NCBI GenBank assembly: GCA_964560525.1
Contig: CAZLLO010000001.1
Location: 6,656 to 70,655, forward strand
DNA: 64,000 nt
Direction: 5' to 3'
Source of the DNA: an uncultured Candidatus Saccharibacteria bacterium
GTDB lineage: Bacteria; Patescibacteriota; Dojkabacteria; SC72
This document shows, piece by piece, positions 1,747 to 59,741 of the stretch. Each line of letters begins with the position of its first letter. The first letter of the stretch is position 1. The position numbers were made by a program, and so were the translations under genes. Below the pieces are notes generated by a model. It saw only the letters and a list, made by a program, of their open reading frames with translations. It searched no databases and had not been told where the DNA came from.

Positions 1747-3300
1747 TTAGAACACTCTCCGGCTTCCTGGACCAAATACATTCTGCCTTGTCCAATAGTT
1801 AGGTTCGTAACTACTACTCCCATATCTAAAAAGATCCCCGACCTCTTTTGATAAGACTTGCACAGGCCTTCTATCCTCCTTTATGGCTACATGTAGTACG
1901 ATGGTAAATGCATCTACTAGGTCATCATGCTTCTCTACTCCAAAATATACTAACTGCTGTATTAATTTGTCTGCACCTTCTTTTGGAAACAATACTTTAC
2001 CCGATCTAATCATATACGTTACTGAGTCTAACCTAGCCCTCTTATCCTGTCCATTAACAGAAAAACCCTTTGCATCAAAACTACTTGTAACTAATTGCTG
2101 TATAACTGCTCTCTGATATCCAACATCTTCAATATATATCTTACATCTCCTATCAAACAACCCTGATTCTTTTGAAAGACTCTTTATTCGCTCTGTTGCA
2201 GAGGGAAAATCCAATCGTTCATTAACAGGAAACTTTTGAATATATACCTTCAGAGTCTTTTCATATCCAAATACATGCCCTACTACTAAAGCTGTATAGT
2301 CTGCATGATTACTTGAAGATATAGCTAGATCAACCCCTATTACAGAATATCTATACCCATCACTATCTACAGGCAATTCATCATAGTACTGTATCCACTC
2401 CTTGTGTACTATTTGGTCTTCATCAGCAATAATTTTAAGCATATACTCCCTTTGCCATGCTTTATCATCTCCATTCAGCTTTCTTTCAACACTTAAATCA
2501 TCAAGTGTTGGGTATCTACCTTTCCAAAGTATTTCATTCTTATCATTAATAACAGGATATTCCCTGTAAATTGTATTACTCGATTCCTTCTCAATATTCT
2601 TTCTAAGTCTCATTAGTAAAGAATCTTCATGCAAAAGATTTCCCACCATCACAATCTTAGTATTTTTCTCTCCAAGAGGAGCAATCTCCCCTGTGAACCA
2701 AGTATATGTCCTATCTCTTCCTTCTTTCGTCTTTGTAGAAGTTAAATCTTCAACATCATCACAGATAATTAAGTCTGGTCTGTATGCTCCATGCCTTAAA
2801 CCTCTAATACTCTGTTCACTTGAAGCTGCTATTATCTTTGCATTAAAGTTAGGAATTACTAAAGAGAAGGAGCCCCACTCATCTGATGTCTCCTGGAAGG
2901 GGCCTAAGTCTTTTCTAAGAAGCTCATTGTATTCCAACTCTCTCTTTATATTAGCTAGATGTATCTTAGCTTGTTGTTGTGTCTGAGAAAGAATCACTAC
3001 ACATTTCTTCTGTTGTTTTCCTATTATTGACCATATTGGATATGACATTGTCATAATGGTTGATTTAGCAGAACCCCTGAAAGCAACAATAACTGCCATC
3101 TTTAGATTCTCATCCTCTGTAATCCTAAACATTTCTCTTTGAAATGGTGCTGTTTTGTACCTGGTATATTGGCTAAAATATAGATGAAAGAATATATAAT
3201 GGCTTTCTTTAACAATCACTCTTCTTGCGACCTGATCTTCCAAAAGTTTGTTTATATCCTCGATTGTTATTTCAGTATTATTCTGTAATTGGTTGTCCAT
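1747..3300 (-). CDS. terL: Phage terminase large subunit (TerL, Terminase_6-like).
   Basis: 517 aa. P-loop FRGSAKST, Walker B LIICDDVED, C-terminal RNaseH-fold nuclease acidic residues (IGVDLA, IEDVGY, HDDLVDAF). Confidence 0.8.
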   Translation of the reverse strand: MDNQLQNNTEITIEDINKLLEDQVARRVIVKESHYIFFHLYFSQYTRYKTAPFQREMFRITEDENLKMAVIVAFRGSAKSTIMTMSYPIWSIIGKQQKKCVVILSQTQQQAKIHLANIKRELEYNELLRKDLGPFQETSDEWGSFSLVIPNFNAKIIAASSEQSIRGLRHGAYRPDLIICDDVEDLTSTKTKEGRDRTYTWFTGEIAPLGEKNTKIVMVGNLLHEDSLLMRLRKNIEKESSNTIYREYPVINDKNEILWKGRYPTLDDLSVERKLNGDDKAWQREYMLKIIADEDQIVHKEWIQYYDELPVDSDGYRYSVIGVDLAISSSNHADYTALVVGHVFGYEKTLKVYIQKFPVNERLDFPSATERIKSLSKESGLFDRRCKIYIEDVGYQRAVIQQLVTSSFDAKGFSVNGQDKRARLDSVTYMIRSGKVLFPKEGADKLIQQLVYFGVEKHDDLVDAFTIVLHVAIKEDRRPVQVLSKEVGDLFRYGSSSYEPNYWTRQNVFGPGSRRVF

Positions 3301-3685
3301 TTTCTTCCTCCTTTCTCTCTTCTGAGAATGCCATACTAAGAGATTTACGAATTAGTTCCTTTTGCTCATCCGTTAGAGGGAGATCCTTGTTAGTTGTAGT
3401 TACTTCAAGTTTAGGAGAGTAGTTCTTATGGTGATTCTTTAACCAGAATATTATTCCAGTTAAGTTTCCATCCCTTATGGCAGAGATCAATTGACTCTCT
3501 GCCATATCATTAATTAACTGAGCCCCTTCTTGTAGTGCAATCTCAGCATCTTCTGCAAACTTAGGATCTCTTTTCTTCCATCTATAGAATGTTGCTCTTG
3601 ATACTCCCATCTTTTCGCAAGTTACCTGTATGATTGGTGTTTTCTTAAGCTGTTCTACAATTGCTTTCTTATTTATTGTTTTCAT
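3278..3685 (-). CDS. Small HTH protein in the terminase-small-subunit position.
   Basis: 135 aa. HTH signature VSRATFYRWKK. Lies immediately upstream of terL and overlaps it by 23 nt. Confidence 0.5.
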   Translation of the reverse strand: MKTINKKAIVEQLKKTPIIQVTCEKMGVSRATFYRWKKRDPKFAEDAEIALQEGAQLINDMAESQLISAIRDGNLTGIIFWLKNHHKNYSPKLEVTTTNKDLPLTDEQKELIRKSLSMAFSEERKEEENGQPITE

Positions 3686-5010
3686 TGTATTTTCTTTGCA
3701 CTTAATTTAGTTAGGTTTTCCCATCTATTCCTAATTACCTCTGCATAAACAGGAGATTTTTCCATTAAATAGCATCTTCTTTTCATCTTCTCACAAGCAA
3801 TTAATGTAGATCCGCTTCCGCCAAACGGTTCTACTACTAAATCATTTCTTTTTGTAAGGACTTTGACATAAGGAATGAGTATTTCTAACGGTTTTGTCCC
3901 AAAGATTATCCCCTGTCCAGAGCTTTTCTCATCAGAAGCTTTGTATTCTATGAAGTCAGTTGGCTGTATTTTCTTCCCTTTCTCATATCCTTCCCAATGG
4001 GGCTTCCCAGATATGGCATACAAAGCTGTCTGGTACTCATTCTGAAGCAATTCTTCCTCGGGAGGAGTATTCATGACTTCCTCTTTGTATGAGGAACCAA
4101 CCATTGCTATATCGTGTTTAGAAAAGAATTTGTATTTAGCAGAAAATCCTTGGTGTCTATTTGGTATATGCCAAACAATCATGTTTTTTACCTTCCAATA
4201 CTTCTCCATTTCTCCCCATATAGTCCTAATATTTTTCCAATTTTCATATACAATGATGTGGAAATCCTCCTTTGCTACTTCTGAAATATTTTTCATCCAT
4301 AGTTCTGTGAAGTTATCTGGTAATACATCTGTCTCAAGGTACTTTCTGTCTCTTTTGTATCCGAATCCTTCCGTTGGTTTACCGCTCTTTTTCTTCCCAT
4401 GAAGATAGTCCAAAATATACGGAGGGTCCGTATAAACCATATCTGCTTTTTCACCATTCATTAACTTGAGCATGTCTTCTTGTACTGTAGAGTCTCCACA
4501 CATCATCCTATTTTCTCCTAATTGCCATATATCTCCTTTTTGAATTTCAATCTTCTTAATGTCTAGCTTGTTAAGCTCTTTTTTGAGATCAAATACTTCT
4601 GGGCTATTATCTTCCCAATCAAAGATTAGATCCAATTCCTCTGAGTTGAAACCTGTATCTGTTAAGAATTCCTCTGCAAAGCCAGCGAGAAGTTTAAAGT
4701 CGAATTCTCCTTGATTTTTGTTTAATCTAAGGTTTAATTCCTTCTCCTTCTCAATATCTGGAATATTTACATATACAACAGGCATTTCTTTTATACCTAA
4801 GGCTTTCGCTGCCTCTATACGCATATGTCCACCAATGACAATGTTCTGTCTACTAGGAGCATTGTTAACTATTGCTGGATCTACAATACCAAATCTTTGG
4901 ATACTGGTTTTGAGATCATTTAAAGCTTTTTCATCCCATTTCCTTGGGTTGTAGTCAGCTTTGACTAAGGCGTCTATTTGAACATAGACTGTTTGAAGTT
5001 TGTTCTTCAT
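3682..5010 (-). CDS. ParB-like nuclease domain fused to a beta-class DNA methyltransferase (N6-adenine or N4-cytosine).
   Basis: N-terminal ParBc-like block GGHMRIEAAKALG. Motif IV DPPY lies upstream of motif I EPFGGSGST, which is the beta-class order. ATGA start/stop overlap with the upstream gene. Confidence 0.75.
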   Translation of the reverse strand: MKNKLQTVYVQIDALVKADYNPRKWDEKALNDLKTSIQRFGIVDPAIVNNAPSRQNIVIGGHMRIEAAKALGIKEMPVVYVNIPDIEKEKELNLRLNKNQGEFDFKLLAGFAEEFLTDTGFNSEELDLIFDWEDNSPEVFDLKKELNKLDIKKIEIQKGDIWQLGENRMMCGDSTVQEDMLKLMNGEKADMVYTDPPYILDYLHGKKKSGKPTEGFGYKRDRKYLETDVLPDNFTELWMKNISEVAKEDFHIIVYENWKNIRTIWGEMEKYWKVKNMIVWHIPNRHQGFSAKYKFFSKHDIAMVGSSYKEEVMNTPPEEELLQNEYQTALYAISGKPHWEGYEKGKKIQPTDFIEYKASDEKSSGQGIIFGTKPLEILIPYVKVLTKRNDLVVEPFGGSGSTLIACEKMKRRCYLMEKSPVYAEVIRNRWENLTKLSAKKIQ

Positions 5011-7604: not shown

Positions 7605-8012
7605 TTGATATCATCTAGTCGGGGAAATGGGGTCCAGACCCATATGTCCCGTATTATTTCTCTGCTCCATATTCTAAGGCTAAATACCTGGTCAACAGAA
7701 ATCTCAAAAGAAATTCATGTTTTACAGGATGATATCGTGATAACAAAGAACAGAGTAAGTGCTTTTTGTAATACCAATTTAGATTCCATATTAAAATTAA
7801 AAGAAAATGATATTGAAGATATTATGATTGCGGGTATTGCAACCGAGTTAGCAGTTTCAAGTACAGTTCGAGATGCGCATGATTTGGATTATGATGTTAC
7901 TGTAATTGAAGACTGTTGTGCTTCTGCAGATATTTCTAATCATAATGCTACGATGAAGATATTACAGAAGATAGCAAAGATAGAGAATTCTGCTACGGTA
8001 TTTGAAAAATAA
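7605..8012 (+). pseudogene. 5'-truncated isochorismatase/cysteine-hydrolase family gene (C-terminal ~105 aa only).
   Basis: DDIVITKNRVSAF...IMIAGIATELAVSSTVRDAHDLDYDVTVIEDCCAS matches the C-terminal half of the isochorismatase-like fold. The apparent N-terminus of the ORF is translated from repeat R1 (7633-7674), so the true 5' part is missing. Confidence 0.6.
7633..7674 (+). repeat. Repeat family copy R1 (TCCAGACCCATATGTCCCGTATTATTTCTCT...CCATATT).
   Basis: Direct repeat shared with 8036, 9535 and 10323. Contains 3 CCRTAT sub-motifs about 10-22 bp apart. Confidence 0.7.
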
Positions 8013-8035
8013 AGACATATAGATTCCAGACCCAT

Positions 8036-8072
8036 ATGTTCCATATTGCTCCTCATATTAGTTTCGCTACCC
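8036..8072 (+). repeat. Repeat family copy R2.
   Basis: TCCAGACCCATATGTTCCATATTGCTCCTCATATT. Lies immediately after the isochorismatase fragment stop. Confidence 0.7.
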
Positions 8073-9497: not shown

Positions 9498-9534
9498 AGA
9501 ATCAATTATACACTTTCTTTATATCCTTTTCTGT

Positions 9535-9580
9535 TCCAGACCCATATGTTCCGTATTATTTCTCTTTTCCCCCGTATTGT
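9535..9580 (+). repeat. Repeat family copy R4.
   Basis: TCCAGACCCATATGTTCCGTATTATTTCTCTTTTCCCCCGTATTGT. Confidence 0.7.
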
Positions 9581-9645: not shown

Positions 9646-10290
9646 ATGGTTATAAAAGCAAAAGCAGTAATATTTGATAGAGATGGTGTAATTATTGATT
9701 CCGATACACTAGTAGGACAATCAATAATTTACGGACTTAGAGAAATTGGTATCGATGTTCCAGAGGATGATATTCCACCTATGGCAGGAAAAAGCGTAGA
9801 TACACTTAGAGATTCTTTATTATCTAAATGGAACTTCAATTTTGATGAATTTCGTGCCATTCAAAGAAAATATTTTTATGACAATTTAGATAACGCTCCC
9901 TATTACACGGATATGGTTGGGTTTATAAAAGATTTACATGCCCAGAATAAAATTCTTGCGCTAACAACATCCGCTGGTAGAGAAGGAACTACCCTAATTT
10001 TAAAGAAAATTGGGATAAATGATATGTTCAATGTTATCATCGCAAAAGAAGATTGTGCTAAGCTGAAACCTGATCCTGAACCATATCTGAAAACAGCTGA
10101 AATGCTTGGTGTCTCACCAGAGGATTGCATAGTAATCGAAGACTCAGCAATAGGTGTTGAAGCAGCAAAAAAAGCTAATATGAAATGTATTGCAATACCA
10201 AATAAACATACGAATAAGCAAGACTTTTCCATAGCAGATTTAGTAGCCAGCTCGGTGGAAGATATAAAAAACAATATTTTAATCTCTTAG
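9646..10290 (+). CDS. HAD-superfamily hydrolase (beta-phosphoglucomutase-like phosphatase).
   Basis: AVIFDRDGVIIDSD is HAD motif I (DxDGV). 214 aa. Confidence 0.7.
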   Translation: MVIKAKAVIFDRDGVIIDSDTLVGQSIIYGLREIGIDVPEDDIPPMAGKSVDTLRDSLLSKWNFNFDEFRAIQRKYFYDNLDNAPYYTDMVGFIKDLHAQNKILALTTSAGREGTTLILKKIGINDMFNVIIAKEDCAKLKPDPEPYLKTAEMLGVSPEDCIVIEDSAIGVEAAKKANMKCIAIPNKHTNKQDFSIADLVASSVEDIKNNILIS

Positions 10291-10322
10291 GTATTTAGGA
10301 ATATTGGGAGCCCATTATGTGT

Positions 10323-10357
10323 TCCAGACCTGTATGTCCCGTATTCATTATCTCCTC
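10323..10357 (+). repeat. Repeat family copy R5.
   Basis: TCCAGACCTGTATGTCCCGTATTCATTATCTCCTC. Sits between the convergent HAD and ABC-permease genes. Confidence 0.65.
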
Positions 10358-11088
10358 TATTGTTTGCTATCACTCTTCATCTTTCTTTTGAATATAGCCA
10401 TTGTTAATGCGTAAACTCCACAGATATATACAAAAATAATTAGAATTGATAAGAAGAGATTTTCTACATTAGAAGCCAATACACCTCTAGTAAGATCAGC
10501 TGCCCATATAAATGGGAGCCCCTTACAAATATATCCAAATACTTTCCCTGCAAGATCTATAGAGAACCACATACCTGAAGTAAATGCTACTAATTGGATC
10601 ACGATACTACCTAGAGGGCCAGAGGATTTATCAGTAGATATACATCCTACAAGAACTCCCAAACCAATAAATAAGATAGAAATAGGAATTAAAACCAATA
10701 TTGCCCATAAAATGTTAATAGAAAAATGCAAACCTAAGAGAATACCCGTAGCAAAGAAAAATACACTCTGAGTAATAGTTAAAGGAAGTAATGCAAGAGA
10801 ATAACCCAAGATATAATCAATTGGCTTCATAGGACTAGAAAATAACCTTGAAAGAAGTGATGTACTCCTATCTCTAGCAACTAGGTTTGCTGTAAACAAA
10901 GATATGAAAGAGAAACTAAACAAAATAATACTAGGTGTGAAATTTCCAATTGAATACTGTTCAACTGGGATATTAAATTGCTGAAATATAATTAGGAAAA
11001 ACAAAGGTAAGAGAATACAAAATACAAGACTCATAGGATCTCTAAGTAATTCTTTTATATTTCTTTCTGCGAAAGCTATCATTCTCAT
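10357..11088 (-). CDS. ABC-2 type transporter permease.
   Basis: 243 aa, about 6 TM segments. Abuts the ATPase gene (2-nt gap). Confidence 0.6.
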   Translation of the reverse strand: MRMIAFAERNIKELLRDPMSLVFCILLPLFFLIIFQQFNIPVEQYSIGNFTPSIILFSFSFISLFTANLVARDRSTSLLSRLFSSPMKPIDYILGYSLALLPLTITQSVFFFATGILLGLHFSINILWAILVLIPISILFIGLGVLVGCISTDKSSGPLGSIVIQLVAFTSGMWFSIDLAGKVFGYICKGLPFIWAADLTRGVLASNVENLFLSILIIFVYICGVYALTMAIFKRKMKSDSKQ

Positions 11089-20838: not shown

Positions 20839-20870
20839 GACCGAACGCTGATCTCGGTCCTTTTGTTTCT
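20839..20870 (+). terminator. Rho-independent terminator candidate after dedA.
   Basis: GACCGA-acgctgatc-TCGGTC stem-loop followed by CTTTTGTTTCT. Confidence 0.45.
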
Positions 20871-20913
20871 CTCAAAGATATCTCCATTCATATTATTCTG
20901 GTATTATTACTCT

Positions 20914-21345
20914 ATGAATATAAAGATAAAGAGGTTTGATAAATCACTCCCTATACCTGAATACAAGACTCAAGGTGCTGCTGCGTTTGATCTCTATTCT
21001 AGAGAGGATGTAACTGTTAATCCTGGTGAGGTTGTATTGATTCCGTTGAATATAGCTATGGAGATTCCTAAGGGATATTTTGTATTACTTGTTAACAGGA
21101 GTTCTACATTTAAATTAGGTATTACGTGTGCTAATGGTTTAGGTATTGGGGATAGTGATTATTGTGGAGATAATGATGAGTATAAGTTCCCTGCGTTAAA
21201 CTATACCAAGGATATTGTTACTATTGAGAAGGGTACTAGGTGTTGTCAGATGTTAATACTACCTGTAGAACAGGTTAATATACATGAAGTAGAACATTTA
21301 GAGAATACTGATAGAGGGGGATTCGGAAGTACAGGGAATAAGTAA
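20914..21345 (+). CDS. dut: dUTP diphosphatase.
   Basis: AAAFDLYS motif. About 143 aa from the internal Met (MNIKIKR). The track start at 20863 overlaps the terminator. Confidence 0.75.
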   Translation: MNIKIKRFDKSLPIPEYKTQGAAAFDLYSREDVTVNPGEVVLIPLNIAMEIPKGYFVLLVNRSSTFKLGITCANGLGIGDSDYCGDNDEYKFPALNYTKDIVTIEKGTRCCQMLILPVEQVNIHEVEHLENTDRGGFGSTGNK

Positions 21346-22290
21346 TTAACTTTTTAAATAATCTTCCTCGAAACCCATTATAGGCGGCACAATGCTATCT
21401 CCATTCCCCATATTGGCCCAATTAATTTGTGGTGGAATATATTCTGGTATTCTGTAATTTGTTAACTCATTACAATCCTCCTCGGTCATTTCGAAATGCA
21501 TTGCTTCCCAATTTTCTCGAATATGATTTTCTGATGTAGAAAAAACTTCAGGTTTAAATCCCAAACTCTTCATCCAATTTAATACTATTTGGTTTTGTGT
21601 TTTTCCATATTTTTTACTTAATCTAACCAACGGTTCCCAATCATGAGTAATTGTCATTCCCTGTCTTAGAGGTCTCCATATTATGGTTTGAATATCTAAA
21701 TCATTGCATAAGTCAAAAATCCCTTCATCCTGGCACAATCTTATTTCGAAACTAATATGTGTCTCATGAGCAAACAAATTATCTTTAAATTCTTCTTTAA
21801 ATTTCTTAATTAATTCTTTATTCGCATTTGACAAGCTAATATACCTAGTTCTATTAGCTCGTATAAGTTCCCACAATTTCTCTACAACAACATCATATCC
21901 AAATTTAACAACTAAAGATTGTGTTACAAGTGTTGAATCAAAATAGTTAGTATCAAATAGCTGATACATATCCTCGATATCTTTTTCTAATGCAGAAAAA
22001 TCATCTAAATCTCTTGGGTATAACGAATTAGTGATAAATATATCCTCTCTATTAATATCGGATTCTCTAATAGCTCTTGCTAATAATTCAGCAGATTTGC
22101 CATGCCCATAACCCAAAGAAATTTCTGTAAAGTTGTATCCCATTTTTAAGCTTGTGATCAAAGCATTTACACATACTTCATCTCCCTTTATATCCTTCAA
22201 ATCAATATCTCTATGCCCACGCCCTCCAACGCCATAAGTTCCAATACCAATAGGAGAAAGATCTTTCCCTGAAATAGTAGTTACTTTCAT
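21346..22290 (-). CDS. Aldo/keto reductase family oxidoreductase.
   Basis: LSPIGIGTYG, FTEISLGYGHGKSAELL (DTA..YG-like) and ISLSN motifs. Confidence 0.55.
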   Translation of the reverse strand: MKVTTISGKDLSPIGIGTYGVGGRGHRDIDLKDIKGDEVCVNALITSLKMGYNFTEISLGYGHGKSAELLARAIRESDINREDIFITNSLYPRDLDDFSALEKDIEDMYQLFDTNYFDSTLVTQSLVVKFGYDVVVEKLWELIRANRTRYISLSNANKELIKKFKEEFKDNLFAHETHISFEIRLCQDEGIFDLCNDLDIQTIIWRPLRQGMTITHDWEPLVRLSKKYGKTQNQIVLNWMKSLGFKPEVFSTSENHIRENWEAMHFEMTEEDCNELTNYRIPEYIPPQINWANMGNGDSIVPPIMGFEEDYLKS

Positions 22291-22295
22291 AATTG

Positions 22296-22730
22296 TTAGA
22301 ACATAAATTTAGGTTTCTTAAATGGCCATACACTCATTATCCATTCTTTAACCTTCTCCATTACTTCTTTCTCCATATTAGAATATTTATTTCTAATCCA
22401 CATATCTATTTCTACATCATATTCCATATCATCACATGGATACATATACAAACATCCTAAACATTCATCTCTACTGTTATTCAATATTGTATATGTAAAT
22501 GATGCTCGTTTTTGAAATTCTTTTTGATGATATCCCAAATCAACATTATTCTGATACAAGGTATGGTTTGGATATAGAGGATAACCATTCTCATCTAACA
22601 TATCCATAACTGCGGCATAGTCCATCTCAGAAATATCTATGGTTAATGGCAGGAGGATACAATTTGTAAGGACTAATTCCTGTGGTATTTCAAAGGTATC
22701 TGGTATTATTGGTTTTCTATACATTGCCAT
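22296..22730 (-). CDS. Hypothetical protein.
   Basis: 144-aa ORF. Its ATG lies 2 nt after the stop of the orphan 3'-end fragment encoded in repeat A. Confidence 0.4.
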   Translation of the reverse strand: MAMYRKPIIPDTFEIPQELVLTNCILLPLTIDISEMDYAAVMDMLDENGYPLYPNHTLYQNNVDLGYHQKEFQKRASFTYTILNNSRDECLGCLYMYPCDDMEYDVEIDMWIRNKYSNMEKEVMEKVKEWIMSVWPFKKPKFMF

Positions 22731-22766
22731 GGCTATATATTACAACAATCTAATATCTTTCGTATA

Positions 22767-22864
22767 TCCTCCTCCACACTTTCCTTACACAAATGAAAAA
22801 ATCCAAACCTGGTATCTAATTGGTTAGATATAATCTCATTCATAATTAAATACAAGCACCTATT
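22767..22864. repeat. 98-bp direct repeat copy A. It encodes an orphan duplicated 3' end (MNEIISNQLDTRFGFFHLCKESVEED...) of the gene at 26593-27096.
   Basis: About 85% identical over 98 bp to 26621-26718. Minus-strand translation matches the C-terminus of the 26593-27096 product. Confidence 0.75.
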
Positions 22865-24521
22865 TTACTATTTTTTTGCCAACTTTATTATTCCTCTCTG
22901 TTAACAAAACCAAACATATTGGTATAGTAATAACCATATTGAAATTAAATAATCTATAATCATTCCCAGATAACAAAAGCATAGTTCCAAGATCATACAC
23001 TAACGCAGGAACGACAAGCATCAGAACTCTAAAACCATGCTTGTAAAGTGCAAATAGACAAACGAGCATTAAGGCTAGAATTTGAGCACCAATTGATTTA
23101 AATACAAAATTCAAAACAGGAAGATTTGAAGCTGTATTCATGACTAAAACAAAAGCATCCCCTATCTTTGTATATATTGTATCTACATGTTTGTATCCAA
23201 TACTCTTTTTGGGAGTGATACCAACGTTTACATGTGCATTTGGACTCCCCTTTGTAGACCAAACAATACTTGTAAGACTCCTAACTGCAATCAAAGAATC
23301 TTTAGGGTCTGATTTTATAGTATTAAAAACCATACTACCAAATTTAGACAAAGGTACACTTTCAACAACCTTGTTAGTTGGTGCATGGGACTTTATTGAA
23401 TTGTAATTACCAAGGGAGTAAGTGCTTTGCCAAAGTTCATCAGAAGCTATTTCATTCATAAAAGCTTTGGTCTCAGACGTTAATGCTGAAGGATTTTTCT
23501 TCATCACATCGCTGAGTATAGTCATTGGTAGACCTACAGACTCACCATATGTATTATGCGGATATTCTACCTTTAAGAAAGAATACAGCGGACCCTTGAT
23601 AAGAACAAATACTGAGGCTGTAATAAATAATAATATTATGATTTTCTTAACCTGTTTGAAATATAGTATACATACCAGGATAAGTAATGGAATTGTATAA
23701 AAAAGCGCATTATGTCGGATGATTGTTGTTAATGCTACACATACACCAAACCATATAACATTAGAAGATTTCCTCAACCATTCCCCATGGCTTAGGTATA
23801 TATCAATACTTCCGACAAGAAGAATCAACACGAAAATAGTTAGTGCCGTATCTTTCCAGGCATACATCATAATATTCCTCGTGAATGGATTTAGAATTAT
23901 TAGAAATTCGACTATTACTAATAATACTTTTGAGAAACCCCAAGATCTTAGAGTAGATATCAAATATCCTACCCCGAGACTGAATATTACAATCTGTAAG
24001 AATATTACAAAAGTATAATTATTATATATTCGTGTTGCTAGATATATTAAAAAGGTATGTAATACTGGGTGCCAATCATTAAATGTAAAGCTTTGAACCT
24101 GTAACCATTGGTTCGCATTGTCGGGTGAGATTCCACCAGGATAATATGCCAATAACGTAATTGCTAAGATGATAAAACATATTAAAAAAGATACGAAGAA
24201 GAATCTCATATCTAACTTCTCCTGCAAACTATTTATCTTAATATGTTTGTCCTTAAGCTTAGAGCACAAAAATATTAAGACATTAAAAGCAAGTATCATG
24301 TACAAAAAGGAAAGCCCCCCCATTACCAAGACTTCTACAATTGAGAAAGAACCTTCAAAATATACTGTAAACCTTGTAAACACAATATATCCCGACAAAA
24401 GGATTCCTAGAACAATAAAAACTATCTTCCTCCACTTAGAAAGTCCTTCTACGGAAAGCTTTAAGAAGTTTTTGTATCTCAACCAAAGATTTTTAATATT
24501 AAGAAGATTTTCTTTCTTCAT
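22860..24521 (-). CDS. Polytopic membrane protein, possibly a GT-C-type glycosyltransferase.
   Basis: 553 aa, more than 10 TM segments. Sits in a cassette with a GtrA-like gene and a Glf-like flavoenzyme. No motif verified. Confidence 0.35.
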
Positions 24522-26073
24522 GGTATTCTTCCTCAGTATTAACGTTCCAAATAACAGATTTATCCTTTAAATTATTTTTTATTACTTTAACTGTTTCAAT
24601 TGCCGTTAGCATAGAATGATCGGTATTATTATACCTATGCTGCCCATTTCTTCCAATACAATACAGGTTATCGATAGTATTTAAGTAATCCTTAACCTTA
24701 TCAAATTCTTCATACGTACCAAAGTATGCAGGATATACTTTCTTCATTCTGATATATGTTGAATCAAGCACATCCTGTTCTTCTATAACATCAATTTTGA
24801 CTAATTCGCGAATAGCAAACCTAATAAATTCTTTTTCTGGTGTGTTCCACATTTCATCTCCTTCATCACAAAAATATTCTAAACCAACCCAGACAGTATT
24901 TTCATTATCTTGGACCATATATGGAGACCAATTATTAAAAATCTGTAATCTCCCAATTTTCACATCTCTTTCTTGTATATATATCCACGTATCTGGGACA
25001 ATGTTCCCTACTGTTTTAATATTTGTTTCATTCTTTATTTTTAGCTTTTTCAAAAGTAGTCCGACAGTAATAAAGCTTCTATATGGTAAATTAGTAGCTA
25101 TCTTTTTTACATCCTTAGGGATATCGTCACCCATCGCATCAACCAAATCTTTAATTGGCATGCTTGAAAAGAAGAAATCTCCATTTGTACTAGTGATATT
25201 TCCTTTAACATTTCTTGATTCTACACCTGAAATTTTATTACCTACACAGTTTATTTTCGTAACACTGGAATCAAGGTGTATTTCCCCTCCCATTTTCCTT
25301 ATCTCCTCAGCCATAGTTTCCCACAACTGTCCTGGACCTTTCTTAGGATAGAAGAATTGCTCAATAAGGGATGTTTCCTTACTCTGATAATCTTTTTTAA
25401 ATATTTTTAACAATACTTCTTTTACCGCTTGCATTAACGATAGTCCTTTTATACGTTGCGCCCCCCAACTTGGAGAAATATTTCTAGGATGTACTCCCCA
25501 AAGCTTCTCTGTATAATCTTCAAAGAACATAGCATATAATGGTTTTCCAAAGCGATTAATAAAAAAATCCTCCAATGAATTTTCTTTTCTTTTATTAATA
25601 ACAGAAAGTATGTATCCAAAACCTGCTTTCATTGTTCTAATCAAACCCATATTTTTAAATGTTTGTAACTTCATAGATATTGGATAATCAAAGAACTTTC
25701 TTAAAAAGAATATTCTAGATATACGATTTCTTATGAGCATTACCCTATCTACTTTCTCTGGATCTGGTCCATCTTTCACCAAAGGTTTCTTAATACCAAG
25801 TTTTTTATCGTCTTTTGAGGATTTCCCCTGTAATGGCATTATTTCATTCCATAGATCTGTAACTTCCTTACTCTTGGAAAAGAATCTGTGGCCACCAATA
25901 TCAATCCTATTCCCTTTGTATATCGCCGTACGAGAGATACCACCGATATAGTTGGTTTCTTCTAATATGATTGGTTTGATATCTGTTTCTTTTAGCAATT
26001 GATATGCTGCTGTTAATCCCGCAGGTCCTGCACCTATGATTATTGCTTTCCTTTGATGTTTTTTCTCTTTCAT
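24499..26073 (-). CDS. FAD-dependent oxidoreductase (amine-oxidase / UDP-galactopyranose-mutase-like Rossmann fold).
   Basis: [16 protein letters not shown] dinucleotide-binding motif. IGGISRT...IDIGGHRF. Confidence 0.5.
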
Positions 26074-26091
26074 TATTAAGATATAAAAATA

Positions 26092-26529
26092 TTATTTGAA
26101 TATGAAGATTTTGCGACCAATATAATTCCAAAGTAATACTACTCCTGCAATAAAGATTTTAACGACAATATAGAATTCAGTACCAAAAATTTTAATACCA
26201 AAATACATACCTAATTCAGTCATCAATAATCCGATAACACCGATAATAGAAAATATTACAAATGATTTGAATTGCTTCCCATTTACTTTGTCATTTCCTT
26301 TTTTAAATACAAAGATTAGAGATAAGATGTAGTTGAAAGTTAACCCTGCTACAAAGCCTAATGCTGTAGATATTAGTATCCCAGTTTTTCCAAGGTCATG
26401 AAAGATAAATTCCCTTGCCAAAACCAATACCCCCGTATCAATAAGGAACGCAGAACCACCTACTAATAAATATCTGGCAAATTCTTTTGCTAGTTCTATA
26501 TATTTTGTCTTTTTAATTTCATCTATCAT
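26092..26529 (-). CDS. GtrA-like membrane protein (polysaccharide-synthesis flippase family).
   Basis: 145 aa, 4 TM segments. LLVGGSAFLIDTGVL GtrA signature. Confidence 0.55.
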   Translation of the reverse strand: MIDEIKKTKYIELAKEFARYLLVGGSAFLIDTGVLVLAREFIFHDLGKTGILISTALGFVAGLTFNYILSLIFVFKKGNDKVNGKQFKSFVIFSIIGVIGLLMTELGMYFGIKIFGTEFYIVVKIFIAGVVLLWNYIGRKIFIFK

Positions 26530-26592
26530 TAGAATTTTTCAATTTTCCATGATACCTCCCTGTACCAACGAAATCAAATAAGGCAAGAAACG

Positions 26593-27096
26593 TCATAGAC
26601 TAAATATTAAACAACCAAGATCCTCCTCCACTCTTTCCTTACACAAATGAAAGAAACCAAACCTAGTATCTAATTGATTATTAATAATCTCATTCATAAT
26701 TAAATATGCAGACCTATTACAAGGCCCATTAGTTGTACTTGTATATCTGTAAAATGTATTAGGTAATACAATATCTAGATTAGAAGCATATTCCTCTGTA
26801 CCATCATTAATAATAATTCTTCTTCCATACCTATTAACATACTTAGGATCATATCTAGATCTTTTGGCATTCCTATTATTATCTGCTATCCCTATAACAT
26901 ACCTATACTTTGGTATCTGTTCTAACAGTTTCTTTGTTGAAAATGTACCTGGTACGAATAGTTTATCTATACCGTACTTCTCAGCATCCAATTCATACAA
27001 TACTTTTGAGCTTCTACGTGTGTAGTTGAAAAATGTATAGAGGAGAATGCTATTCATTCCCCACCTCCACCCATATGGGACAATGATCAGATCCAT
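26593..27096 (-). CDS. Hypothetical protein whose 3' end is duplicated in repeat A.
   Basis: 167 aa. The C-terminal ~40 codons lie within repeat B. Confidence 0.4.
   Translation of the reverse strand: MDLIIVPYGWRWGMNSILLYTFFNYTRRSSKVLYELDAEKYGIDKLFVPGTFSTKKLLEQIPKYRYVIGIADNNRNAKRSRYDPKYVNRYGRRIIINDGTEEYASNLDIVLPNTFYRYTSTTNGPCNRSAYLIMNEIINNQLDTRFGFFHLCKERVEEDLGCLIFSL
26621..26718. repeat. 98-bp direct repeat copy B.
   Basis: Pairs with 22767-22864. Confidence 0.75.
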
Positions 27097-29575: not shown

Positions 29576-32107
29576 CTAAGATTCCAAATTTAATTTCTCT
29601 AACAATTCTTTCTGTTTCTGTTGTAATCTTGCATTAAAAATAATGTGGTAATCAAAGTTAGGGTTTTGTTTTTGGAAATCTCTGAATCCTAATTCTTTCG
29701 CAAATACCTCATTTGTGATTCTTCTATCTCCTTTTTCGTAATCTTCTTTGTTTCTTGAGTAGTCAATCTTTTTATCATCTTCTTTAACTTCAATAACAAT
29801 AAATCTTCCTTTACTCGTCTCTATTAAGAAATCTGGGAAATACCTACTGATCTTTTCTTTCGAGGGATTCCAATATTCGAAGAAAAAATCTGTATGGACA
29901 GAGTCTGTTACGTTTCCTGTAAAATATAAATCTATAACTACCTCATCAGGACTTAATATTTCTCTTAGATACAAAAATAATTCTTTTTCGTCTGTTGTGT
30001 CAAAAGAATATGGGTTTATATGAAATCCTAATCTCCCATTCTCTAAATCTTCCTGATAAACTACAAGGCTTTCTCTATTTTTATCTCGACTTAATTTAAA
30101 TGGGAAATTCTTTGTTAATTCAAGTTCCTCCTCTACAATCGTCCTCTCCTCTTCATATTTATATAACTGGCTCGTAATATCATTCGCAATACTGTTTGTA
30201 ACATATGTAGAATTTCTATTTGTTAAACAATCGCAATTATCAATATTGTTAGCTTTAAATATCTCTTCAACATCTAAGCAAGGTACATGGGTTTTCAAAG
30301 ATAAATTTGCTACAAAGTGTATATATGATTGTTGAGATTCTTCCCACTTAATATCAACTTCTTTTCGTTTATTTATAAAAGCTGTATGAGAGTCTTCATT
30401 CAATTTAATACCACCTTCCTTTTTAATTCCTTCCACAGAAGATTTTATGTACTCGCCCAAAGGTTTTAGCTTTATATCCTCTAGCTTCTTGTTTTCTATG
30501 TTTTTTATTTCGGTTAAGATTTTCTTTACCTTTATCTTTCTTGTTTTTAATACATTCAATGCTAAATCCAACTTTTCAACATTCTGTTGTTCTAAATCTG
30601 CCCTTGTTACAGAGAAATTCCTTTGCAATTCTTTATCTAATATCAAAGCATTTTCATCTGATAAGAATATAGTTGCAAAAGTAGAATTATCTCCAATAGA
30701 TCGCATACATCTTGTAGATGCCTGAAGAACAAAAATAGCGCTTGTAGGCTTCCTGTAAAGGGCGGTAGCCACCAAGGAACGAACATTCCATCCTTCAGTA
30801 CCTTTTCCTACTAAAAGTATAAATTGCTTTTTACTTTCATCCGTGTCCAGTTTCAAAAATTCATCCCTACTTTCTTCTTTCTCTGTATGGTATTCTAATA
30901 TACTTTCTAAAGGGATACCTTTTTTAGAAAGTATTTTTTCCAACAAAGGTCTCAGATTCTGCTGCAGATCTTCAATGCTACTAGAATAAAAAGCTATCTT
31001 GGGAAGTTTTCCTTCTAATTTTAGTCCTTGGTAACGATTTGTAAAGACATTTACAACCTCTGAAACGAAATCATCTGATTTAACATTCTCATATTCAACA
31101 AAATTAACTCGTTTCAAGATACCCTCCTCAATACCTTGTTTTAAACCAAAATAATATACAACATCACTAATAAGTTTGTTATTCACATATGGAGTACCCG
31201 TAAAATTCACCACATTTACCAAAGGAGTCTGGGCTTCTTCATTTAAGAATTTTATCGTTTGTCTTGTCTTCTTAAGTGTATTATCAAGATTAGTTCCATA
31301 AGAATGGTGCGCTTCATCAACAAAGATGGCTAAATTAGAAAGTCCTTTTATAGCATCCCTTCTATAATTAGCATGGAATTGCTTCTCTCTATCCGCTTCA
31401 TTTAAAAGAATCTGCCCAGACTTCAAAGTATTATTTTTTTTCTTTAATATAATTTTTTGAGAGTTTGAAACAATAACATTATAGTTTCCAATAAAATTAA
31501 CAGGTGTTTCTGTGCTCTCTAAATAGTGATATTTGATATTCAAGACAATGTTTTCATATTCTTTTGGAACAACAGTTCTATAATCAAAGGATTTTATTTC
31601 CTTTAAACTCTCAATTATTGTTGTATCAGGAGCAAAAACAAGAATGTTTTTAGCAAATCTTGAATCGGGATATCGAGAAGACAGTATAAACTCATACATT
31701 ATCATTGTACCCATTAACAGAGTCTTGCCAGAACCCATTGTAAGAGCATATACCTGATTAGGATAGGCGAATTGTCCATATTCTTTCTCTACCAACTTCT
31801 TGATCTTGGTTTCTTTTTCAGGATCATAGGCTAAATTTAGAACCTCTTCGTTTGATAACGAGAAACTAGAAATTAAATCTCTTTCAGACTCATAAAGATT
31901 AGGAATTATTTCTGCAGTTGTTTTATTTCCCAATATCTCTTTGAGATATACATAAGTTTCAAAGGCTTCTTTTTGCGGAGTATAAAGATAGTTGATTTTG
32001 TATATATGCTTTAATATGTTTCTTGTTTCTTTTGTAACACCAGGATAATCAGCTAATTTCCAAGATTCTACTTTTATTTTTAATTTTTCGAAGAGGAGAC
32101 TATTCAT
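29576..32107 (-). CDS. res: Type III restriction enzyme Res subunit (SF2 helicase plus C-terminal PD-(D/E)xK endonuclease).
   Basis: Walker A MGSGKTLLMG, motif II FVDEAHHS, C-terminal PDFLIET...IVIEVK. Overlaps mod by 8 nt. Confidence 0.8.
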   Translation of the reverse strand: MNSLLFEKLKIKVESWKLADYPGVTKETRNILKHIYKINYLYTPQKEAFETYVYLKEILGNKTTAEIIPNLYESERDLISSFSLSNEEVLNLAYDPEKETKIKKLVEKEYGQFAYPNQVYALTMGSGKTLLMGTMIMYEFILSSRYPDSRFAKNILVFAPDTTIIESLKEIKSFDYRTVVPKEYENIVLNIKYHYLESTETPVNFIGNYNVIVSNSQKIILKKKNNTLKSGQILLNEADREKQFHANYRRDAIKGLSNLAIFVDEAHHSYGTNLDNTLKKTRQTIKFLNEEAQTPLVNVVNFTGTPYVNNKLISDVVYYFGLKQGIEEGILKRVNFVEYENVKSDDFVSEVVNVFTNRYQGLKLEGKLPKIAFYSSSIEDLQQNLRPLLEKILSKKGIPLESILEYHTEKEESRDEFLKLDTDESKKQFILLVGKGTEGWNVRSLVATALYRKPTSAIFVLQASTRCMRSIGDNSTFATIFLSDENALILDKELQRNFSVTRADLEQQNVEKLDLALNVLKTRKIKVKKILTEIKNIENKKLEDIKLKPLGEYIKSSVEGIKKEGGIKLNEDSHTAFINKRKEVDIKWEESQQSYIHFVANLSLKTHVPCLDVEEIFKANNIDNCDCLTNRNSTYVTNSIANDITSQLYKYEEERTIVEEELELTKNFPFKLSRDKNRESLVVYQEDLENGRLGFHINPYSFDTTDEKELFLYLREILSPDEVVIDLYFTGNVTDSVHTDFFFEYWNPSKEKISRYFPDFLIETSKGRFIVIEVKEDDKKIDYSRNKEDYEKGDRRITNEVFAKELGFRDFQKQNPNFDYHIIFNARLQQKQKELLEKLNLES

Positions 32108-33923
32108 TTTTCTTAAGGTTTATTTCAAATGTTTCAAAATACTCTTCTCCTAAGACATCAATTATCTTCACCGCAACTATATTCTTCTCATTACTCTTAT
32201 TTTCATATTCATATTTAGCAGATATCAAATTCTTTCTATCTGGTAAATCCATAATTTCAGCATTGAACAATTTCCCATTGTAATTAGTATCAATACATAC
32301 ACTGTCAATGATTTGTTTAAAATCTTCCACATACACATTTTCCTTGGAATCAAGCTGCTTTTCATTCTCAAGTTCCAACTTCTTTATGAGAATAGGAGAA
32401 TGAAAATCTCTGATTTCAATAAGAACCTTTTTATCACTAGCTTTTACTTCTACCTTTGCTTCTGGTAGTTGTTTAAATATGAGATTTTTATTATCAGCCT
32501 GGATATCTTTAACTTCAACTTTTACACCTGTTTTGTTTTCTTTCCTCAGATACTCTAAAGCATCTAGTTCTACTCCAGAGGCAATAATTATGACTTCTTG
32601 TTCATAAATTTCCTCCTCCTGAGAAGATGTCGTTTTTCCAGTAAACTGATCTATACCCTTTTCTATTTCTCTTATAACATTCTCGATATCTAACTTGTTA
32701 AGCACTCTATTTAGGGGCATTACCTTTACAAGGTTATCATCGAGTACTCCATCAAAATAACTTTGTTTAATTGGTTCTACACCATATATATCCATTATTA
32801 TTTCTTTTGACTCAATTTCATTCTTAAAAATATCATAGTCATTTACATTGTAAACTTTAAAAGATCTTAAGCCTTTGTATTCTTCTACTAGTTTCTGTTG
32901 TTTTTGATCCTCGATTATTTGATTTAATCTTTTCGTTGTAGTTTGTATAGCTCCAAGATTAATATCACATCCTATCCACCTTCTTCCCAATTCCTGTGCT
33001 ACTGCTAGAGTCGTACCACTTCCACAGAAACAATCCAAAACTAAATCACCAGGGTTAGAGGAAGCTTTAACAATTCTTTCAAGTAAAGTCACAGGCTTTT
33101 GTGTTGGATAAGAAGTTCTTTCCGTTTCATCTCTTTGTGAAATAATTCCCATATCCCAAACATCATCAGCATTTTTCAAATCATCTACATAATATGTATA
33201 TACCTTACCATTCGCTCTTACCTCTTGATATCTTTTCCCTTCTTTATCTGTTTTAAAATAACCACTAAAGCTACCCTCATCCGTATTTCTTTTTACACCC
33301 GCTTCGTGTCCATTATAATTCCACTCCTCACCTTTCCTGTACCATAAAATAGTATCATGTTTCCTATTAAACCAAGTATTACTTCGCCCTCCACCATTTT
33401 TGTAATACCATATAATTTCATTCAAAATATTCTTCTCTCCAAATATTTCATCTAACACTAATCTTAATTGAGCAACTTTCCTATAATCCAAATGTACAAA
33501 AATTGTGCCATTTTCTGCAAGAAGTTCTTTCAGTATGATTAATCTTTCATACATAAATTGTAAGTATTCATCATTTGCCCATATATCGGAATATTGCTTT
33601 TCCTCTAGCAAACTTCCTTGAGTACCTTCAACATTCAAACCTCTTAATTTAACTTTTTTTATGTAATCTGCGCTGCTATCAAAAGGGGGATCTATATATA
33701 TCAGGTCTATTTTCCCCCGATACATCTTAAGTAAATGAGATAACACCTGCAAATTGTCTCCCCAAAATAACTTGTTAAACTCTTTTGTATTAAAATCACC
33801 ATAAACTTCTTTCTCTTGTGCAGGAAAATATTCAACAGATTCTAAAGGTTTTTTGCCAATCCAATGAAGCATAGGCCTTCCCTTAATAGGAGATATCGTT
33901 TGAATATCATTCTGTTTGGACAT
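32100..33923 (-). CDS. mod: Type III Mod DNA methyltransferase (beta-class N6-adenine methyltransferase).
   Basis: Motif IV IYIDPPFDS lies before motif I DCFCGSGTT. 607 aa. Confidence 0.8.
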   Translation of the reverse strand: MSKQNDIQTISPIKGRPMLHWIGKKPLESVEYFPAQEKEVYGDFNTKEFNKLFWGDNLQVLSHLLKMYRGKIDLIYIDPPFDSSADYIKKVKLRGLNVEGTQGSLLEEKQYSDIWANDEYLQFMYERLIILKELLAENGTIFVHLDYRKVAQLRLVLDEIFGEKNILNEIIWYYKNGGGRSNTWFNRKHDTILWYRKGEEWNYNGHEAGVKRNTDEGSFSGYFKTDKEGKRYQEVRANGKVYTYYVDDLKNADDVWDMGIISQRDETERTSYPTQKPVTLLERIVKASSNPGDLVLDCFCGSGTTLAVAQELGRRWIGCDINLGAIQTTTKRLNQIIEDQKQQKLVEEYKGLRSFKVYNVNDYDIFKNEIESKEIIMDIYGVEPIKQSYFDGVLDDNLVKVMPLNRVLNKLDIENVIREIEKGIDQFTGKTTSSQEEEIYEQEVIIIASGVELDALEYLRKENKTGVKVEVKDIQADNKNLIFKQLPEAKVEVKASDKKVLIEIRDFHSPILIKKLELENEKQLDSKENVYVEDFKQIIDSVCIDTNYNGKLFNAEIMDLPDRKNLISAKYEYENKSNEKNIVAVKIIDVLGEEYFETFEINLKKNE

Positions 33924-51021: not shown

Positions 51022-51630
51022 CTATATTTCTTCTACAACTTTCTTAACATATCTATCTAACGATTGGGTTAGAACCAACGATGAATACGGTTTGTCACCC
51101 AATGGCTTAACACCGCTTCTACTGTAGCAATTTTTGCATACAAGAGCAAAACTTGTAGTATCAAGATAGTTTAAGTCTTTTGTATTACCACAGTACTTAC
51201 ATTGAGAGAAATCTTCCAAGAAACCCATCTCCATCAGAAATTTAATCCTAAGCTTATTTGTAACTTCTAGTTCTAAATTACTTTTTAATGCCACCTGAAG
51301 CGCATCAAAAAGTTTTGGATATGGGTCGTAGTCCTGAAGAAATTTATTAAGTAAAAAGAGAATTCTTTGGATATTGGGGACTTCAAGCTTATCAAAATTA
51401 AGACTGGAAACAGGTGCAGATTCAGTTAGAATTGGAAGACCTTTTCCTTCGTAGAAAGCAATTTGGCTAGTACACAATGTCTGCATATTTCCCCTATTCT
51501 TACTGTTTAGTTTCCTAATACCTTTTGCAAAGAGTGTAAACTTGCCATACTCTCTTCCAAACACAGTAAGTACTTTATCTGCTTCAGAATAGTTAACCGA
51601 TTTTATTACAGTAATCGTATCTTTATTCAT
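51022..51630 (-). CDS. recO: DNA repair protein RecO.
   Basis: N-terminal OB region. C-terminal CKYCGN...CKNCY zinc motif. 202 aa. Confidence 0.6.
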   Translation of the reverse strand: MNKDTITVIKSVNYSEADKVLTVFGREYGKFTLFAKGIRKLNSKNRGNMQTLCTSQIAFYEGKGLPILTESAPVSSLNFDKLEVPNIQRILFLLNKFLQDYDPYPKLFDALQVALKSNLELEVTNKLRIKFLMEMGFLEDFSQCKYCGNTKDLNYLDTTSFALVCKNCYSRSGVKPLGDKPYSSLVLTQSLDRYVKKVVEEI

Positions 51631-52258
51631 ATACTCCTTTTCTTGTTAAGACAACAAATGGTGTCTTGAGAAATATCTTTGTATCTTCAAAGAAACTGAT
51701 ATGTGAAGCATATTTTGCTTCCAATACTATCCTATCCTTAAATTTAATATCATTTCTTCCTGAGACTTGCCAGATTCCTGTAATTCCTGGTTTTACCTTA
51801 AATATTCGTTTCAAATATCTTTTCCCCTCTGAGTATCTTCCTAAATATCTATTTATCTCCTCTTGATACATTGGACGTGGACCAACCAAAGACATATCTC
51901 CAATTAGTACATTAAGAAGTTGTGGAAGCTCATCAATATCGGTTTTTCTAATAATTTTCCCAATCCATGTGATTCTTGGATCTTCACTTATTTTTAATTT
52001 TCCATCATTTTTAAGCCATTTTTCATACTGCTGACTATCTTGTATCAATTTATGTGCCTGTGGAACCATAGATCTAAATTTGTACATACGGAAGTTCTTA
52101 CCCTTGTACCCAAGTCTTACAGGTTCTTTAACAAAAATGTTATTCATATCTGTAATCCAAATACAGAAAGAGACCACCAAGAGTAACGGGGAAAACAAAA
52201 CTAAAAGGAGAAAGGCGATTACAATATCTAATATTCTTTTAATCTTTTTGTAAGACAT
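51623..52258 (-). CDS. Polyprenyl-phosphate sugar phosphotransferase (bacterial sugar transferase family).
   Basis: N-terminal TM. KFRSM...DELPQL...GDMSLVGPRP motifs. Confidence 0.75.
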   Translation of the reverse strand: MSYKKIKRILDIVIAFLLLVLFSPLLLVVSFCIWITDMNNIFVKEPVRLGYKGKNFRMYKFRSMVPQAHKLIQDSQQYEKWLKNDGKLKISEDPRITWIGKIIRKTDIDELPQLLNVLIGDMSLVGPRPMYQEEINRYLGRYSEGKRYLKRIFKVKPGITGIWQVSGRNDIKFKDRIVLEAKYASHISFFEDTKIFLKTPFVVLTRKGVYE

Positions 52259-59177: not shown

Positions 59178-59741
59178 ATGACAAAGTTACTTACAGTAAT
59201 AGCGATTGTATGGCAATTAATAACAGGAGAAACAGAGAGATACCAAGTAGTGGGTATTACAAGTCCTCAGCAGATGGTATGGGTTAATCCATATACTGTC
59301 GTTTTTGCTGTTGACGGGAATATTACTAAAGTTAATGTATTTACAAAATCAACAGAATATATTGGAAATATAGAGCCAAATGTTTTTATAGGGGTAAGTA
59401 ATAATAAAGAATTGCAATATTGTACAATTAAACATTATCTCATTACCTCAAGAGATCAATTTTCAACCATATTTGAAATTGATGGAAAAGAGTTAAAGTT
59501 TTTTGAGACTATTCGACCCATTCATTGGCAAGGAAATATTATGATTGCACAGACGGCTCTAGATTTCCTAGAGCAACATTACTACGAAATAGACACGGAC
59601 AACGGGGACATGAAAGAAATTCCACATCCTCCCATGCTTAGAAATAAAGCAGCATACATTGAAGAAGATATACCAGGAGATATTTATGTGAATTACAATG
59701 CAAGAGAATATTTTAAATTCTTCTTCTTACATTTTGACTAA
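59178..59741 (+). CDS. Secreted hypothetical protein.
   Basis: ORF with a signal-like N-terminus from the internal Met (MTKLLTVIAIV). Confidence 0.35.
   Translation: MTKLLTVIAIVWQLITGETERYQVVGITSPQQMVWVNPYTVVFAVDGNITKVNVFTKSTEYIGNIEPNVFIGVSNNKELQYCTIKHYLITSRDQFSTIFEIDGKELKFFETIRPIHWQGNIMIAQTALDFLEQHYYEIDTDNGDMKEIPHPPMLRNKAAYIEEDIPGDIYVNYNAREYFKFFFLHFD

Follow-up and report, generated by a model that had tools for sequence, protein, structure and literature searches.

How can a block of three genes come to lie within the end of another gene, flanked by two copies of that same gene end, with no recombinase in sight that might have placed it there? The question is raised by a stretch of 64,000 nucleotides from an uncultured Candidatus Saccharibacteria bacterium (assembly GCA_964560525.1, contig CAZLLO010000001.1, positions 6,656 to 70,655 of the forward strand; the whole stretch is hereafter called the window), in which genes for a GtrA-family membrane protein, a flavoenzyme and a membrane protein with a glycosyltransferase C (GT-C) fold are set between two direct repeats at the 3' end of a gene of 167 codons, here called g167. 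Saccharibacteria have tiny genomes and live attached to host bacteria, a contact that depends on their own surface, and the locus bears on how they gain new surface-modifying genes. A comparison with related genomes revealed that the three genes were inserted into the 3' end of g167 in this lineage of Saccharibacteria, and that the insertion duplicated 87-99 nt of its target. This bears out the original prediction, made by a model from the letters of the window and their open reading frames (ORFs), that these genes had entered the 3' end of a gene.

The evidence comes from two related Saccharibacteria genomes (L002, contig CAIVJR010000006, and L010) in which the site is empty and the segment that occurs twice in the window is present in a single 99-nt copy. 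In L002, g167 (10001-10471) is followed after 2 nt by the gene of a 144-aa protein, and the arrangement in L010 is the same; this is exactly the unoccupied site that had been predicted, that is, the gene at 27096-26593 directly followed by the one at 22730-22296. According to blastn, positions 10001-10438 of L002 correspond to 27057-26620 of the window and positions 10340-10908 to 22864-22296; the two alignments overlap in L002 by precisely 99 nt, which means that 3755 bp and one repeat copy were added ten codons before the stop codon. The L002 contig, which belongs to a lake metagenome-assembled genome deposited at NCBI, is 100% identical to a 3.3-kb metagenome contig of the Joint Genome Institute (L027; 3300045671); thus, the empty-site genotype has been sampled twice, independently. 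The genes flanking the cassette are 85-92% identical to their orthologues in the relatives, and neither the cassette nor a second fragment of g167 was found in any of the 14 other loci harboring a g167 homologue. Exact-protein look-ups with two flanking proteins of the window returned no match.

The two repeat copies, A and B (Table 1), are 99 nt long, agree at 86 of 99 positions (87%) and start 3854 nt apart, the longest exact stretch common to both being 23 nt (repeat positions 13-35). They had been described as a 98-bp pair of about 85% identity, and the repeats are real. No third copy exists in the window, which holds three families of direct repeats of at least 40 nt in total. All the genes from xth to that of the 144-aa protein lie on the minus strand; the flavoenzyme and GT-C genes overlap by 23 nt, the first 5 nt of copy A overlap the stop codon of the GT-C gene, and the orphan ORF of the C-terminal fragment stops 2 nt ahead of the ATG of the 144-aa gene, as had been read from the sequence beforehand. 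Further downstream follow an aldo-keto reductase gene and then dut, in convergent orientation.

Table 1. Features of the cassette region in the window (window coordinates; repeat positions in the remarks are counted within the 99-nt repeat).
Feature	Position	Strand	Remark
xth	27814-27050	-	
Target gene g167, 167-codon ORF, pyroglutamyl-peptidase-I (C15) fold	26593..27096 (27096/27057-26593)	-	
Repeat copy B, left, attL-like; codons 127-159 of intact g167	26620..26718	-	unique substitutions at 38, 63, 87 vs 8-9 relatives
Replacement tail LGCLIFSL + stop, encoded by inserted DNA	26593..26619	-	differs from canonical IRKILDCCNI
GtrA-family small membrane protein, 145 aa, putative polyprenyl-phosphate-sugar flippase	26092..26529	-	PF04138, E 5.7e-17
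FAD enzyme, 524 aa, PRK07208 family	24499..26073	-	NF005546, 822 bits
Polytopic membrane protein, 553 aa, GT-C glycosyltransferase fold, related to DUF6020	22860..24521	-	
Unique inserted DNA, 3755 bp; inserted unit with one repeat copy, 3854 bp	22865..26619	-	blastn overlap in L002
Repeat copy A, right, attR-like; opens orphan 3' fragment	22766..22864	-	unique states at 8-12 and 54
Orphan ORF, 40 codons	22855-22733	-	
Ancestral last ten codons IRKILDCCNI + stop of g167	22733..22765	-	tail type as in relatives
144-aa gene, directly after target gene at empty sites	22296..22730	-	L002 10474-10908, L010 2471-2905; DNA 90.2% identical to window

The window appears to have been assembled from a metagenome, and related strains co-occur in such samples; hence one might suspect a chimera of two strains joined at the repeat. 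We consider this extremely improbable. A Logan contig (L006; run SRR8925806, 4028 bp) is 100% identical to positions 26703-22676 of the window and takes the same path over both junctions, spanning most of repeat B (from 16 nt in), the full cassette, the full repeat A and the beginning of the 144-aa gene; as this contig is independent, its agreement at both junctions makes an assembly artefact unlikely. Moreover, the 23 nt of exact identity between A and B are too short to collapse at the word length of the Logan assembly, which we take to be k=31, and the GT-C gene is, through its stop codon, physically joined to the gene fragment.

The target gene belongs to a family of 41 proteins from Saccharibacteria and other Patescibacteria; no Pfam domain is matched in g167, which shows the fold of pyroglutamyl peptidase I (C15) with the conserved Cys and His. 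The annotated ORF overlaps xth by 47 nt (27050-27096), and most homologues lack its first 13 residues, which are disordered in the structure model, so that the true start is probably Met14 at 27057. The closest homologues of g167 end in ...VEEDIRKILDCCNI, a sequence that matches the orphan fragment rather than the intact gene of the window, which ends in ...VEEDLGCLIFSL. Indeed, between repeat B and the stop codon of g167 there are eight further, non-canonical codons (LGCLIFSL), and it is repeat A that carries the ancestral IRKILDCCNI, the stop codon and the 2-nt spacer to the next gene, in a tail of the same type as in P0002, P0003, P0004, P0008, P0009, P0012, L002 and L010. Repeat B had been taken for the genuine 3' end of the gene; this assignment has to be reversed, the ancestral end being found on the orphan copy. 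The related proposal that the intact gene received a replacement 3' end does agree with its new tail, which in length and hydrophobic pattern equals the short-tail alleles of the family (LREIIRSL, IENIIKKL and LDLILSLL) and is placed in the last helix of the g167 model (residues 153-166).

It might be argued that the polarity is the opposite one, namely that the arrangement of the window is ancient and that the "empty" sites arose by secondary, precise deletions through recombination between the repeats, by which the canonical tail was restored. Recombination between A and B would recreate the exact sequence of the empty site, and the repeats differ from each other as much as species do. However, under this scenario every one of the nine close relatives, whose intervals also differ otherwise, must have lost the cassette; the databases searched contain no protein more than 48% identical to the GT-C protein; and an origin by insertion would be required all the same. 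For these reasons we regard it as improbable.

Where, then, did the second copy of the gene end come from? Over repeat positions 13-99, A and B agree at 79 of 87 positions. Copy A matches six relatives better than it matches B (80-81/87) and copy B matches L013 best (81/87), the values of both copies against the relatives ranging from 74 to 81 of 87, and there is no substitution that A and B share exclusively. Apart from the unique states listed in Table 1, B differs from all relatives in everything past position 99. Duplication within the lineage should give sister copies; since A and B are not sisters, one of them was probably imported, and this comparison of aligned sequences makes it probable that the cassette brought a repeat copy with it. 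The divergence of the repeats had been attributed to the age of the event; it is better explained by their different origins, given that each copy is at least as close to the copies of other species as to its partner and that the cassette is missing from all 14 other loci. The base composition of the cassette (GC content, GC at third codon positions and codon usage) lies within the range of the host (z -1.7 to +0.6); it was discarded as a mark of foreign DNA and points to a donor of similar composition.

These data also bear on the idea that an illegitimate insertion duplicated the host target in situ, that the two copies diverged later and that the new tail is a product of chance read-through. 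Both copies do fall within the range of the local clade, and the 7-nt match followed by five mismatches at the right junction resembles a microhomology patch. Nevertheless, A and B lack any exclusive derived site and are not nearest neighbours; the tail fits the helix pattern of the family, which is rare by chance; and if 8/87 differences had accumulated in place, the event would date back roughly to the separation from the relatives, all of which lack the cassette. In addition, a target duplication of about 90 nt is no known product of transposition, and homology-facilitated illegitimate recombination typically gives deletions instead (PMC3240628). We hold this explanation to be quite improbable.

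As for the machinery, the absence of an integrase from the segment, already remarked on in the original prediction, was confirmed and extended to the whole window: the ORFs of at least 110 aa yielded no domain of an integrase, transposase or resolvase. A 135-aa ORF was rejected as a transposase candidate, its match to an IS3-like helix-turn-helix being faint and terminase small subunits matching better. A comparison with 2.9 million viral contigs gave no match to the 23-nt core or to the GT-C protein family, and the GT-C protein went unmatched among 50,697 phage genomes; a plasmid search with the same protein gave one distant match (22% identity). No PHROG family is matched by the GT-C or the GtrA protein, the two cassette proteins that were compared with PHROG. 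The Rfam scan returned a tRNA-Lys gene only.

Two further regions of the window may be mentioned in this context. A prophage-like segment on the minus strand (1747-5010) runs off the left end and encodes a terminase large subunit (phrog_38, E 1.8e-81), a terminase small subunit and a ParB-DNA methyltransferase fusion; its terminase genes (1747-3685) lie about 18 kb from the cassette. On the other side, 3 kb from the cassette and also on the minus strand (29576-33923), there is a restriction-modification pair consisting of an 843-aa restriction-enzyme-like helicase (weak match to NF046055) and a 607-aa N6/N4 DNA methylase.

The locus might be read as a site-specific integrative element whose integrase was lost or acts in trans, with the repeats as attL and attR of a tyrosine or serine recombinase. 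The signature is the classical one, that is, an intact attB-like site that is unoccupied in relatives and, on both flanks of the insert, direct repeats by which a gene 3' end is duplicated; A and B have an identical core of 23 nt in common; elements that keep attL and attR after the loss of their integration genes, the cis-mobilizable elements (CIMEs), have been described (PMC5704250); and the prophage-like segment continues beyond the left end of the window. On the other hand, neither the element nor the rest of the window offers a recombinase in its ORFs of at least 110 aa, the three metabolic genes take up nearly the whole element, in which no trace of integration or transfer functions is left, and the viral and phage collections gave no match in the searches described above. 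Furthermore, no direct repeats flank the related gene triads found in two other loci (L007 and L018) or the related gene pair in a third (L019). In our view this reading is possible but unlikely.

The explanation that we favour, with a confidence somewhat above even, is a Campbell-type integration, by which a circle carrying the three genes together with the 3' segment and the short tail of a related g167 allele entered the gene. The incoming molecule would have been composed of the cassette, a 3' segment of about 90-100 nt and a short-type tail, the latter two from the g167 of a related Saccharibacterium; it would have been inserted by one crossover within the segment common to circle and chromosome, the most likely place being the 23-nt identical stretch at positions 13-35. 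As no integrase is found in or near the element, this crossover was probably made by the host, that is, by its homologous-recombination machinery after natural transformation; RecO is encoded in the window (51022-51630). Saccharibacteria are naturally competent, and DNA is integrated by homologous recombination in a comEC-dependent manner (PMC10633639). An integrase or other site-specific recombinase, which had been assumed for the event, is thus not needed: a single crossover with a circular molecule likewise leaves the homologous segment, 109-950 bp in the cases reported, duplicated around the insert (PMC3240628).

Several points weigh against a single crossover with a circle. Neither a further filled site nor a donor-type allele, with the short tail directly before the triad, was found in the 14 genome and metagenome loci or in the contexts of P0013, P0022 and P0025. 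Recombination of the RecA type works poorly on a homology of 99 nt with about 90% identity, and an integrase may exist beyond the 64 kb, for instance with the prophage-like segment at the left end. The evidence that the copies are a mosaic consists of few sites, namely 87 nt with three unique changes in B and one in A, and positions 36, 37, 42 and 66 are polymorphic among the relatives. A precise crossover at 37/38, suggested by a first three-way comparison, was dropped when these sites turned out to be polymorphic among nine relatives; although the alignment of the repeats that had been proposed for mapping the crossover was carried out, no precise point is claimed here. The short-tail pattern, which between 3e-5 (strict form) and 4e-4 (loose form) of random 27-nt stretches of the window fit, was defined only after the data had been seen. 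Finally, copy A shows five mismatches in a row at positions 8-12, after a 7-nt match (AATAGGT) that overlaps the GT-C stop codon; they are unexplained and imply an earlier illegitimate join by which the circle was made.

The position of the insertion invites a comparison of the whole interval between g167 and dut, which was carried out for the window (20863-27096) and nine relatives (L001-L003 and L009-L014). In these ten related genomes the interval contains from zero to five co-oriented genes, belonging to at least eight families. In seven of the eight genomes that have a co-oriented gene after g167, this gene begins within 3 nt of the g167 stop codon or overlaps it, the gap in L014 being 138 nt. 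The DNA homology between alleles stops right after the EED codons, which is the point where the cassette entered, and three types of g167 C-terminal tail go with different downstream content. This suggests that the g167-dut interval is a recurrent site of gene capture. One may go further and imagine an integrase-free capture site in which cassettes are stacked by single crossovers in a conserved gene end, resembling an integron but run by host recombination; we regard this extension as doubtful. If the gene-capture reading were true, the duplicated 3' end of the window would be an example caught in the act in naturally competent Saccharibacteria.

Elsewhere in the window, four copies of a 24-nt core, TTCCAGACCCATATGTYCCGTATT, which extends to 44 nt when its flanks are included, lie on the plus strand within 2.7 kb (7632-7655, 8024-8047, 9534-9557 and 10322-10345), all in one orientation; no copies are expected in shuffled sequence, none was found in 26 fetched loci, and Rfam gave no match. 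The copies bracket a co-oriented isochorismatase-like fragment, a 184-aa ORF and a HAD hydrolase, and the core has the appearance of a motif that marks the boundaries of a small gene array.

What the cassette encodes had been named correctly from the sequence. The small membrane protein belongs to the GtrA family according to Pfam, its score with the NCBIfam model gtrA_1 being just 21.8 bits (cut-off 50). The flavoenzyme scores well above the cut-off of 418 bits for its NCBIfam family, which bears the name "hypothetical protein", and its best solved relatives in the PDB are eukaryote-type UDP-galactopyranose mutases (E 8.5e-15, residues 159-500). The alignment retains the GGH loop, two Arg, the YP tyrosine, an Asn and the RY..N.DHS motif, whose roles we take to be those of the corresponding residues of the Aspergillus enzyme. 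With TIGR00031, the equivalog model of bacterial Glf, the flavoenzyme scored 30.9 bits against a cut-off of 303.75, over its N-terminal part only. At least 8000 homologues were found at E 1e-30 or better; the best are 64-73% identical, and those of them that carry a name are all from Clostridia. The third protein has a GT-C membrane fold in which Asp134 and Asp224 are invariant across 35 homologues; enzymes of this superfamily use a conserved acidic residue of the first extracytoplasmic loop for catalysis, and these two may be candidates for it. No Pfam family, DUF6020 (PF19484) included, matches it above threshold; several of its homologues carry PF19484, a Priestia homologue (22% identity) is annotated as DUF6020, and the closest homologue in a search of 5.8 billion proteins is 48% identical.

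The same triad of GtrA, flavoenzyme and GT-C genes recurs in two unrelated contexts, adjoining transporters in L007 and between dnaB/recR and cysS/corA in L018. In L019 a flavoenzyme/GT-C pair, whose genes overlap again, is embedded in a glycopolymer locus with LicD, IspD, GT4 and Wzy_C. On a Priestia plasmid the DUF6020 protein is encoded in a GT2-DUF6020-EamA-EamA-MurJ-ligase cluster, which by analogy can be said to follow the logic of ArnC/ArnT/ArnEF. These arrangements fit the scheme of three-component extracytoplasmic glycosylation, in which a synthase, a flippase and a GT-C enzyme are joined by auxiliary enzymes that reshape the sugar (PMC11127046). We infer from these resemblances that the cassette might add a furanose, plausibly galactofuranose, to a surface glycan: the flavoenzyme would make the furanose sugar donor (e.g., UDP-galactofuranose), GtrA would flip the polyprenyl-phosphate-linked sugar, and its transfer to the glycan outside the membrane would fall to the GT-C enzyme. 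The search of the literature gave no paper that mentions DUF6020 and none that links GtrA, UDP-galactopyranose mutase and GT-C.

One component speaks against this assignment: a polyprenyl-phosphate-sugar synthase, in particular one of the GtrB type within family GT2, is absent from the cassette; it is absent from the triads of L007 and L018, too, and the rest of the window did not provide one. The GT2 gene at 59713-60666 was considered as a GtrB-like candidate and rejected, its product resembling the cytoplasmic TuaG/EpsE type and showing no similarity to the Priestia GT2 beside DUF6020. The scan of the cassette for promoters and terminators gave no more sites than shuffled sequence; lacking clear signals of its own and standing in a string of co-directional genes, the cassette is probably read together with the host operon.

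The window also contains a resident set of genes for glycan synthesis on the minus strand, comprising a Bac_transf polyprenyl glycosylphosphotransferase and two tandem paralogous GT4 genes (51623-54558), which share an 80-nt repeat of 74% identity, and the TuaG/EpsE-type GT2 mentioned above. This set may build the glycan that is modified by the cassette.

Taken as a whole, the locus represents a cleanly resolved acquisition, in which both the unoccupied and the occupied state of the site are known, the gene has received a replacement end and no recombinase was detected; it suggests that the genes came in as DNA taken up by the cell and recombined by the host. It also draws attention to a recurrent and uncharacterised three-gene module made up of GtrA, a mutase-like flavoenzyme and a DUF6020-type GT-C protein.

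It remains to set the locus beside the systems that it resembles. In mycobacteria the gene order is Rv3789-DprE1-DprE2-AftA; DprE1 belongs to another flavoprotein family and acts on a lipid-linked sugar, whereas the enzyme of the cassette is of the UDP-galactopyranose mutase type. The pathway of arabinan synthesis in which the DprE1/AftA region takes part has been described (PMC11127046). The parallel with the gtrABC cassettes of Shigella and Salmonella phages, drawn in the original prediction, stands in part: both have a GtrA-family flippase and a transferase of GT-C fold in a small, horizontally acquired cassette whose presumed target is a surface glycan. However, in the window there is no GtrB-type synthase, the middle position is taken by the flavoenzyme, and no linkage to phages appears, since the GT-C protein has no phage or viral homologue in the collections searched and neither it nor GtrA matches a PHROG family.

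With regard to the insertion itself, the nearest likeness is the case of e14 and phage 21 in the icd gene of E. coli, attributed to Hill et al. (1989) and Campbell et al. (1992), where the element is said to enter the 3' part of the gene and to bring a diverged replacement end. There, as here, the gene stays intact and the displaced original end is orphaned on the other side; those elements, however, are prophages with an integrase beside the att site, whereas the present one measures 3.8 kb, carries three glycosylation genes and has no integrase or phage gene in it or near it. The CIMEs of the streptococcal families of integrative and conjugative or integrative and mobilizable elements (PMC5704250) are similar in that a gene block without integration or transfer genes is held between attL/attR-like repeats at a gene 3' end. 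Yet they are decayed elements whose att cores are short and exact and for which the species harbors a cognate integrase family, and the repeats of the window are long (99 nt) and 87% identical, with no remnant of decay and no integrase seen in the 64 kb. Campbell-type integration (PMC3240628) shares with our locus a duplicated homologous segment around the insert and the dispensability of an element-encoded recombinase; it was observed there with laboratory plasmids in E. coli, while here a natural event is deduced from the sequence, over about 90-100 nt at about 90% identity. In conclusion, the event belongs with known types of insertion and does not introduce a new principle of mobility; gene acquisition has left a clear mark here, if not a very unusual one.

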